Shown: positions 39,457 to 40,381 of the stretch, piece by piece
Position numbering within the stretch: position 1 is the first letter of the stretch
Layout of the letters: each line of letters begins with the position of its first letter
NCBI GenBank assembly: GCA_951406725.2
Contig: OX597817.1
Span: 133,052,001-133,116,000 of the forward strand
Source: Octopus vulgaris
Lineage: Eukaryota
Length of the DNA stretch: 64,000 nucleotides
Direction of reading: 5' to 3'
Translations under genes and position numbers: made by a program
Notes under the pieces: model-generated
The model's input: the letters and a program-made list of their open reading frames with translations, nothing else
The model's database searches: none
Told to the model about the DNA's origin: nothing

Positions 39457-40381
39457 AAATCGGAGCAATCTCAAGATTAATCAGCCGAAATTGCTAAGAT
39501 GATCTGGTTCTTGACTGAAGACTGAGGGCTTCGAATGTCCCGTCCTGTGGTTCTTGTGTCGTCTCTTTGGTGTTTCATGTTCTTGTCCATGTCTGTAATT
39601 ATTTTTACTGTTTACCTATATAATCGGCGGCTACGTATCCACAATTGTCCTTATACGATAAGTATATTTTTTCTCTAGCATTGATACGACTCTTGATCTG
39701 TCTCTCTCTCTCTCTCTCTCTCCTCCCTTATTCCCCTTCCTTTCTTTCCCTCTCCATCCGTCTTTCCCCCATTCTACGTTTCTCTATCTCTCTCACCTCC
39801 AGTCCCCTCGATCTGTCTCTTTCTTCTCCTCCCTCGTCCACCTTCTCTCTCTTTTCATCTGTCCCTTTCTCCTGTCTTTTGTTCTCACGTGACCGCTAGC
39901 CACTGCTGAGCGCCCTTTTCGTTCCAGCAGTCGCCGAAGCAACACGTATTTGTTCGTCTCCCTGCGGCCATTAGGCACAACTTCATAAGCCAGCCCTAAA
40001 CTCAACTCGTCCTGTCGAAAGACCCTTGTCCTACGTCCTGGTTTTGTTTTGTTTTTTATTTTTACCGTTATTGTTTTTACGTTTTTGTATTCTTATTGGT
40101 GTCACGTATTCTGTATTTTTGTTCGTGTACTTCGTTCGTTTTCCGTCCTCGTGTTGTATACATTCGAAGCTTTCTTCCAGGGGATCTAATGCGCTTGGCT
40201 TAGATTTCCCTTGGCGGGCTGCCCAAATCGGAGCAATCTCAAGATTAATCAGCCGAAATTGCTAAGATGATCTGGTTCTTGACTGAAGACTGAGGGCTTC
40301 GAATGTCCCGTCCTGTGGTTCTTGTGTCGTCTCTTTGGTGTTTCATGTTCTTGTCCATGTCTGTAATTATTTTTACTGTTT
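39457..40381 (+). mobile_element. Non-coding element with identical 157-bp direct terminal repeats carrying a permuted hammerhead-like motif
   Basis: 39457-39613 equals 40225-40381 (offset 768); both ends lie in (TA)n; CT-rich interior; no credible ORF. Confidence 0.8.

Follow-up and report, generated by a model that had tools for sequence, protein, structure and literature searches.

A putative hammerhead ribozyme with a core opened between A9 and G10.1 in a young 768-nt repeat of Octopus vulgaris

The window analysed here, a 64,000-nt stretch of the Octopus vulgaris genome, carries within a (TA)n tract a 1.2-turn copy of a young, non-coding repeat unit of 768 nt. The unit contains a covarying hammerhead motif in which the cleavage site, the GAAA strand and the CUGA strand follow one another in this order and stem II is supplied from upstream. 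We consider it likely that the RNA cleaves itself after C40238, and that the unit is copied by a Naiad-type Penelope reverse transcriptase (RT) from an RNA that is probably circular.

Results

The insertion and its repeat unit

Positions 39457–39615 are exactly identical to 40225–40383, over 159 nt and at a spacing of 768 nt; the 157 bp of identity given in an earlier note on this DNA (39457–39613 and 40225–40381) thus holds and extends to 39615/40383. The same note had described the two copies as identical terminal repeats. The identity stands, but the terminal, LTR-like status does not, as the repeats mark the stretch in which a tandem unit present in 1.2 turns overlaps itself. On the left, the 5′ end of the element joins a (TA)7 target remnant (39444–39457), 14 nt 5′ of the first predicted cut site. 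Copy 1 (39457–39615, plus strand) is the 5′-truncated start of the second turn and holds blocks S, G and C. It is followed on the plus strand by an internal TATATA (39617–39622), which coincides with the fixed 3′ boundary of 21 of the 22 listed insertions and was probably the site of priming on the (TA)n target, and by the unit body (39623–40159, plus strand), which is CT-rich at about 39700–39880 and T-rich at about 40040–40150. No stop-to-stop frame of at least 130 aa is listed for this body after filtering of low-complexity frames. As the comparison of copies indicates, a T-rich 3′ tail (40307–40383, plus strand) leads to the fixed 3′ boundary, 145 nt past the predicted cut, and the right (TA)n tract occupies 40384–40660.

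Only copy 2 holds the complete ribozyme layout. Copy 1 has neither the 5′ strand of stem II nor hairpin Y nor the 5′ strand of the clamp helix X, all three of which are conserved in complete copies, and is predicted to be unable to fold alone. Cleavage in cis at C39470, which the earlier note had proposed to map in this copy, is therefore not expected. As copy 1 lacks these parts, a single cut is to be expected in the insertion of the window, which could therefore not release a monomer; for release, a source copy would need two complete ribozymes.

We then considered the family across the genome (2.8 Gb, 227 contigs), where a first search gave 30 loci representing 25 insertions. The copies share one 3′ end, 145–150 nt past the predicted cut, at which TATATA runs into (TA)n (21/22 listed insertions), and their 5′ ends are variable, with more than one turn in 9 of the 25 insertions and up to more than three turns. 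The unit measures 755–793 nt and family copies are 98–100% identical. Private variants are common to the units of one insertion, as exemplified by three changes restricted to the units of L024/25, and both repeats of the window carry the minority base A at N7; one L024/25 unit departs from the neighbouring units at two sites. Inverted partner copies are present at L001, L063 and L069/70. Copy number was taken from exact anchor matches (47 for the subfamily of the window, 503 for the wider group) rather than from the 2662 candidates of the initial search, which are not a copy number, and older subfamilies contribute 699 and 430 further pattern matches in sets that may overlap. Another anchor lies one unit upstream in 14 of 94 anchors.

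The family thus combines traits of non-autonomous Naiad elements, namely a (TA)n target, a fixed 3′ end, 5′ truncation, partial tandems (pseudo-LTR) and inverted partners, with the non-LTR retrozyme trait of non-coding tandem units bearing one hammerhead motif each. A reading as an LTR retrozyme was rejected on account of the variable 5′ ends and the arrays of more than three turns. Near-identical sequence occurs in sequencing runs of 7 organisms, none of them recorded as RNA. The 8 runs that were compared consist of contigs; in one that is only guessed to be RNA, a 760-nt contig covers the unit together with the cut site, and fits a circle or a tandem equally well. A contig start at 40239 (run X8) was set aside as a cleavage end, as it could reflect a break of the assembly graph at a variant position.

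Ribozyme layout in copy 2

All strands quoted in the earlier note were found where it had placed them, and its proposal of a non-circularly permuted, pseudoknotted hammerhead layout in a young element is supported, with stem I covarying. By sequence comparison, the order along the chain is X5′–Y–II5′–I5′–S–G–I3′–C–X3′, where I denotes the bridging helix between the tips of stems I and II. The comparison shows A9 and G10.1 to be unjoined in the predicted fold, in which the gap is closed by helix X, following A9, and by hairpin Y, preceding G10.1, so that a five-way junction results.

The outermost element, clamp helix X, pairs 40160–40174 with 40292–40306 on the plus strand over 15 bp (minimum free energy (MFE) prediction, −20.9 kcal/mol), and its 3′ strand starts 2 nt after A9. 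This is the closing helix that had been noticed as 40160–70/40296–306. Hairpin Y (40177–40214; MFE prediction, −18.4 kcal/mol) ends 2 nt before G10.1, and a hairpin is found at the same place in unrelated families. The 5′ strand of stem II, GGCUG (40217–40221, with G10.1 at 40217), is detached from CUGANGA. It is followed by the 5′ strand of the bridging helix (40223–40229), which pairs with 40269–40275 with one A-C mismatch in the window copy, and by the GGA strand (40230–40232) of a kink-turn-like loop whose other strand is UAA-GAU (40263–40268), between stem III and the bridging helix. Block S (40233–40244) comprises GCAAU of stem III, C17 at 40238, after which the cut is predicted on the basis of covariation and genomic 5′ ends, and UCAAGA of stem I. 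Block G (40250–40262), supported by sequence and covariation, comprises CAGCC as the 3′ strand of stem II, GAAA (G12–A15.1) and UUGC of stem III. In the alignment, the last stretch before the clamp (40269–40289) holds the 3′ strands of the bridging helix (40269–75) and of stem I (40277–82) and the CUGAAGA core (40283–89, N7 = 40287); all of these strands lie on the plus strand. Stem III had been described as a perfect 6-bp helix. Five pairs are retained and the sixth, A40232–U40263, is not, position 40263 being U in 12, A in 11 and G in 7 of 30 rows.

The window contains two occurrences of the core pattern, compared with none in 100 shuffles. No Rfam model matched the window at gathering score, and no CUGANGA is present on the minus strand of the element. 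The MFE structure of the copy 2 region contains X and Y and no stems I–III (z = −1.95), as nested folding cannot show a knot; the fold of the monomer is no better than those of shuffles (z = 0.18). The strand order had been called none of types I, II or III, which agrees with the S-G-C order and the absence of an Rfam match; the family had been left as possibly new, and here the order proves to be published, as type SGC (accessible part of PMC10085705). The further suggestion that a normal order might be regained from both repeats or from a circle is not supported, as a circle preserves the same non-canonical cyclic order. The bridging helix, hairpin Y, the kink-turn-like loop, the opening at A9/G10.1 and the relation to Naiad elements described below go beyond what that note had recognised.

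Source of stem II

The earlier note had left two options for stem II, the upstream GGCUG (40217–21) or a downstream GGCU. The upstream strand is conserved, whereas the downstream one is absent in subfamily B and engaged in the closing helix. To compare both positions across families, we used 81 distinct S-G-C descriptor hits from 714 kb of loci, a set enriched by the searches that gathered it; shuffled loci (3.57 Mb) gave 1 descriptor core hit. At least 4 Watson-Crick pairs are available to an upstream stem II in 55 of the 81 hits, compared with 0 of 81 for a stem II contiguous with CUGANGA. Subfamily B is instructive, as its core is followed by AAGAAAA, which is unable to pair with CCAGCC, while its upstream GGCUGG pairs perfectly.

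These counts bear on whether the motif could be an ordinary type-SGC hammerhead with stem II directly after CUGANGA, formed either by CUGA (40290–93) with UCAG or by GGCU with AGCC. Both 4-bp pairings can be drawn in the window copy and, when G-U pairs are counted, 16 of the 81 hits offer four contiguous pairs, although 13 of these come from one family. We regard this reading as hardly tenable given the lack of any contiguous stem with 4 Watson-Crick pairs, the sequence of subfamily B, the free variation of the two bases after A9 and the engagement of the strand in the 15-bp helix X. The upstream pairing is also the stronger one (−6.8 kcal/mol for GGCUG/CAGCC and −2.0 kcal/mol for CUGA/UCAG). 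As judged from these comparisons, the opening of the chain falls between A9 and G10.1, where two extra helices clamp it.

Covariation and conservation of the core

Next, we evaluated the model in an alignment of 30 real copies from four subfamilies, from which 5 of 35 candidates had been omitted as truncated or carrying indels. In this alignment 88% of cells are paired, compared with 20–47% in slid controls, and 63 cells show two-sided change against 24.7 in shuffles (0/500), with the qualification that the copies are related and the shuffle ignores relatedness. Counted by pair, two-sided change (8 pairs) is not in excess over shuffles (83/500). Such changes fall in 4 of 6 pairs of stem I, in 2 of 7 of the bridging helix (91% paired; A-U/G-C and C-G/U-A swaps) and in 2 of 15 of clamp X (81% of cells paired). 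Stem II is invariant and 96% paired; since it does not vary within the sequence family of the window, the evidence for it is drawn from other families. The covariation of stems I and III across genomic copies that the earlier note had named as a check is seen for stem I in the alignment and for stem III in one subfamily (L284 and L285), in which C-G is replaced by U-A.

N7 is A in 16, G in 9, U in 4 and C in 1 of the 30 rows, and H17 is only C or A; invariance of the core in this alignment is partly built in by the search patterns. In a set that was not selected by the core pattern, N7 is the sole core position with a listed variant. The characteristic parts of a hammerhead are thus found, with a CUGANGA, GAAA and UH core surrounded by stems I–III that covary, stem II doing so across unrelated families.

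Some copies depart from this pattern. An AUA cleavage triplet is combined with an A-C mismatch or bulge in stem I at L061, L066, L068, L080 and L089, and these subfamilies may be cut more slowly. Short tandem duplications occur within the ribozyme, at CUGAUGA in L216 and L246 and, in L258, starting exactly at +1.

The kink-turn-like loop and folding within one chain

In a kink-turn, two helices are separated by a 3-nt bulge and the tandem G-A/A-G pairs that come after it. The sequence pattern is found in the family of the window and is absent in L284/L285. GA/GA is kept in 29–30 of 30 rows beside a variable 3-nt bulge, and in 23/27 and 25/27 of the Naiad-end family described below. In the fold that we propose, the kink-turn-like loop would bend stem III back, and the bridging helix would tie the tips of stems I and II and thereby replace the usual loop–loop contact.

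The loop also bears on whether the same helices might form between two RNAs or tandem units as a domain-swapped dimer, which was considered because one chain might not be able to bend stem III to the tips of stems I and II. Covariation is blind to the difference between cis and trans, and the 1–2-nt loop between stem III and the bridging helix in some Naiad ends (seen by eye in the accessible records) would agree with pairing in trans. Dimeric cleavage is known for amphibian retrozyme hammerheads (accessible part of PMC7229834) and, from a cited title, for Penelope-type hammerheads, and the same geometric puzzle is raised by Eckert et al. for some SGC ribozymes (accessible part of PMC10085705). 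However, according to the same part of that paper SGC ribozymes cleave co-transcriptionally as short transcripts. The stems of the octopus motif are full length, unlike those of minimal dimer-type hammerheads, and a conserved GA/GA beside a variable 3-nt bulge is the motif of a sharp bend within one chain. We therefore judge a dimer improbable and retain the intramolecular fold.

Unrelated families and the link to Naiad elements

Application of a family-independent descriptor returned two unrelated S-G-C hits in flanking DNA, both of which belong to repeat families (40/40 scored matches each), and further versions of the layout were found within the loci of these two families. In the L083 family, stem II is GAAGGC/GCCUUC and X, Y and stem II are consecutive with 0–1 linker base. 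The L058, L114 and L092 families have the same layout in unrelated sequence; stem II of L058 is weak, with 4 Watson-Crick pairs in 0/13 and a bulged base needed. A further family, located at Naiad ends, shares the layout with stem II GACACC/GGUGUC, and the octopus Naiad motif gives 425 pattern matches in the genome.

In the accessible part of Craig et al. 2021 (PMC8557442), Naiads are described as inserting preferentially into (TA)n and as occurring in partial tandems and with inverted partners. They are said there to "lack canonical HHR", some having core halves 35–50 nt apart that are marked as "core" or "half core". In the accessible supplement, which has 54 published Naiad records, we inspected by eye 59 of the 62 occurrences of one core word and the first 7 occurrences of four GAAA words, and found the same X-Y-II-I-S-G-I-C-X order near the 3′ end of at least 10 records. 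These comprise Naiad_Obim, Naiad_Ovul, three Acropora records, a ctenophore record before Naiad_Mley, whose stem I has only 2 bp, and four more, the Acropora and ctenophore names being taken from the order of the records. The nematode Naiad records examined there have the ordinary C-G order.

In the octopus genome, a ribozyme or degenerate core lies 0.85–2.0 kb downstream of the C-terminus of a Naiad RT on the same strand in 14 of 32 loci (6 descriptor hits and 8 degenerate cores), and in the other 18 no ribozyme is found on the 3′ side of the RT. The Naiad label of the L158 peptide derives from a match by eye to the published C-terminus of Naiad_Obim, and four short Penelope-like fragments gave no Pfam match. 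No active Naiad is present among these RT hits, which are all decayed with open frames of at most 263 aa, and none of the 32 loci examined holds a Naiad with the 3′ end of the window family; the window ribozyme and that of the Naiad-end family share the layout without a sequence match. As the RT hits are all decayed and the young family is 98–100% identical, the hits do not name the enzyme that moves it.

At L184 (2100–3500), a ribozyme of the L114 family stands 1.18 kb behind the end of a Naiad RT, after a short foreign-looking stretch, which may reflect a swapped 3′ end, a nested insertion or a chimera; this locus is counted only among the 14. Hammerheads in C-G-S order belong to other repeat families at L007 (about 60–1130), L026 and L059, and L007 is a separate retrozyme-like array of three copies at 505-nt spacing.

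Genomic 5′ ends

Copies of the wider group also offer a view of where reverse transcription ended. Of the 503 anchors, we surveyed the 94 that come first along the genome (loci L193–L272), irrespective of where their 5′ ends lie. At +1 to +11 of the predicted cut lie 15 of the 94 ends, compared with 2.1 expected from the background rate (p ~6e-9), and 4 lie exactly at +1 (0.16 expected), whereas positions −1 to −24 hold none (3.7 expected). Any other 12-nt window holds at most 5 ends, and three ends are at the foot of hairpin Y. TA-like microhomology at +7 to +11 explains part of the pile-up. An overlapping, TA-anchored set places 30 of 37 ends at +1 to +12, and within six bases on either side of the cut the ends of this set divide 10 to 3 (p 0.046). 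An upstream TA-anchored control (1 match) used a narrower anchor and is not comparable; the unselected 94 copies were used instead.

By +12 the partners of stems I, II and III have already been copied, and structure would thus not readily explain a stop there. Together, these data suggest that the pile-up is an indirect sign of cleavage at AUC in vivo. The remaining 79 copies extend past the predicted cut site, meaning that most templates were uncut, re-ligated or jumped across.

The same survey speaks to the reading that the motif is a hammerhead-derived, non-catalytic signal, for example for RT binding, in which the core letters persist by descent only. In its favor are the 79 cDNAs that pass the site and the break at A9/G10.1, which falls outside the hammerhead variants described in the accessible literature. 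Yet families that are unrelated in sequence, and members of several phyla, have CUGANGA, GAAA and UH in common while N7 is free. Moreover, there are 5′ ends at +1, a point at which no partner strand could still stall the enzyme, and none at −1 to −24. A signal without catalysis thus seems very improbable to us, and we retain a self-cleaving RNA.

Proposed propagation of the unit

For this putative self-cleaving RNA, we envisage a cycle that begins with a cut at AUC in vivo, as inferred from the genomic 5′ ends. Tandem copies with two complete ribozymes would release monomers, which a host ligase would circularise, as has been reported for type I retrozymes (accessible part of PMC7229834). A Naiad-type enzyme would nick (TA)n, prime on the internal TATATA 145–150 nt past the cut and copy backwards. 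On linear, cut RNA it would run off at +1 to +11; on a circle or uncut RNA it would pass the site and give copies of 1.2 to 3 turns.

It is also conceivable, though on balance rather unlikely, that the ribozyme cuts and no circle forms, in which case multimers would arise by read-through of tandem sources or by template jumps, perhaps by an enzyme of another Penelope clade or a HERO-type non-LTR element. Tandem genomic copies contain the same junction as a circle, the RT hits include no active Naiad, and the L024/25 unit that differs from its neighbours at two sites would fit such an origin. Against this, private variants are common to the units of one insertion and more than three turns are reached, and head-to-tail partial tandems with inverted partners are Penelope traits (accessible part of PMC8557442). 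The RLE-type element of the window was rejected as a partner, as it carries a (TAA)n end and no ribozyme of this kind. We therefore continue to favor copying from a circle by a Naiad-type enzyme.

Neighbouring features of the window

The insertion is flanked by a 62-nt inverted repeat (97%; 39399–39460 and 40827–40888), the right arm of which is the 3′ end of a minus-strand element with a GAAAC hammerhead block at about 40960–40975 and no CUGANGA. Perfect 19-bp inverted repeats (39215–39233/39385–39403) enclose about 190 nt of a MITE-like element that adjoins the insertion. Between the two TA tracts on its other side lies a short element with an (ATG)n tail (40661–40826), which we take to resemble a LINE 3′ end. 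The RLE-type non-LTR retrotransposon at 44862–48900 is near-complete, with two overlapping frames (RVT_1, zf-RVT) and a long (TAA)n tail, contains no S-G-C ribozyme and is presumably R4/Dong-like. A type I hammerhead with stems of 5, 6 and 8 bp is located on the minus strand at about 58735–58790, some 1.1 kb from an ORF fragment (57184–57630, plus strand) that has no Pfam match and that we assume to be Penelope-like. A 448-aa open frame with C2H2 zinc fingers (23110–24453) is probably a host exon.

Discussion

Eckert et al. 2023 name six block orders and report that type SGC cleaves in vitro; in the accessible part of that paper, CUGANGA is assumed to be contiguous with its stem II strand as an unbreakable "Block C", and SGC is found in metatranscriptomes, with no match in genomes of known organisms (PMC10085705). 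The octopus motif resembles type SGC (HRIMA-1 and variants, as far as described there) in its S-G-C order, its short linker between stems I and II, its full CUGANGA/GAAA/UH core and an extra helix that joins the free sides of stems I and II, here 40223–29/40269–75 with covariation. It differs in that the stem II strand follows CUGANGA there and lies upstream of the site here, with the chain open at A9/G10.1 and X and Y added, and in its residence in an animal retroelement rather than a metatranscriptome. Types I, II and III, as represented by the Rfam models, have the cyclic order C-G-S and core stems that form no pseudoknot, in contrast to S-G-C here. Hammerheads with core insertions or a stem I–II pseudoknot (Perreault et al. 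2011, PMC3088659; de la Pena et al. 2021, PMC7936874) are comparable in that stems I and II make a helical contact and the core accepts small insertions. In the accessible parts of both papers, however, these are insertions of 1–2 nt (A6a, U13a, 2a/2b) in circularly permuted folds, with no break at A9/G10.1 and no added helices.

As for the carrier, non-LTR retrozymes likewise consist of non-coding head-to-tail units with one hammerhead per unit in dimers to multimers, and Penelope-like elements have been proposed to mobilise them (accessible parts of Cervera and de la Pena 2020, PMC7229834, and Li et al., bioRxiv 10.64898/2026.07.22.740005). Their hammerheads are of type I and their monomers of about 300 nt (consensus range 51–972) in those parts, unlike the non-type-I motif and the 755–793-nt units described here, which are known from DNA. 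With Naiad elements, as accessible in Craig et al. 2021, the family shares the (TA)n preference, partial tandems, inverted partners and the split-core layout near the 3′ end, although the window unit is without an ORF and does not match the Naiad-end family in sequence. A literature search of incomplete coverage, which included accessible parts of PMC13725137, PMC3088659, PMC10162972 and PMC7936874, returned neither a hammerhead with an opening at A9/G10.1 nor a permuted one from animals or Naiads. On these comparisons of sequence, the block order is known (SGC), the wiring with its opening at A9/G10.1 has no counterpart in the literature covered, and a defining feature is missing for both type SGC and non-LTR retrozymes.

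We lean, by a modest measure, towards a broader reading in which this would be a seventh hammerhead wiring beyond the six permutations thought possible, with the strand broken at A9/G10.1, a five-way junction and a kink-turn that proteins could bind. It would represent a hidden ribozyme of Naiads from ctenophores to molluscs that drives circular RNAs of 750–800 nt and whose cut site in vivo is recorded in genomic 5′ ends.

If true, this would overturn the working rule of a contiguous CUGANGA and stem II that lies behind permutation counts and search descriptors, and would move non-circular permutations from environmental RNA to animal genomes in thousands of copies. The pile-up of 5′ ends would constitute a genomic read-out of cleavage that is usable for other ribozymes, and the motif would be a small, testable RNA with possible protein control via the kink-turn. 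For Naiads, it would explain why they have been scored as hammerhead-less and would remove the argument that the clade thrives without one.
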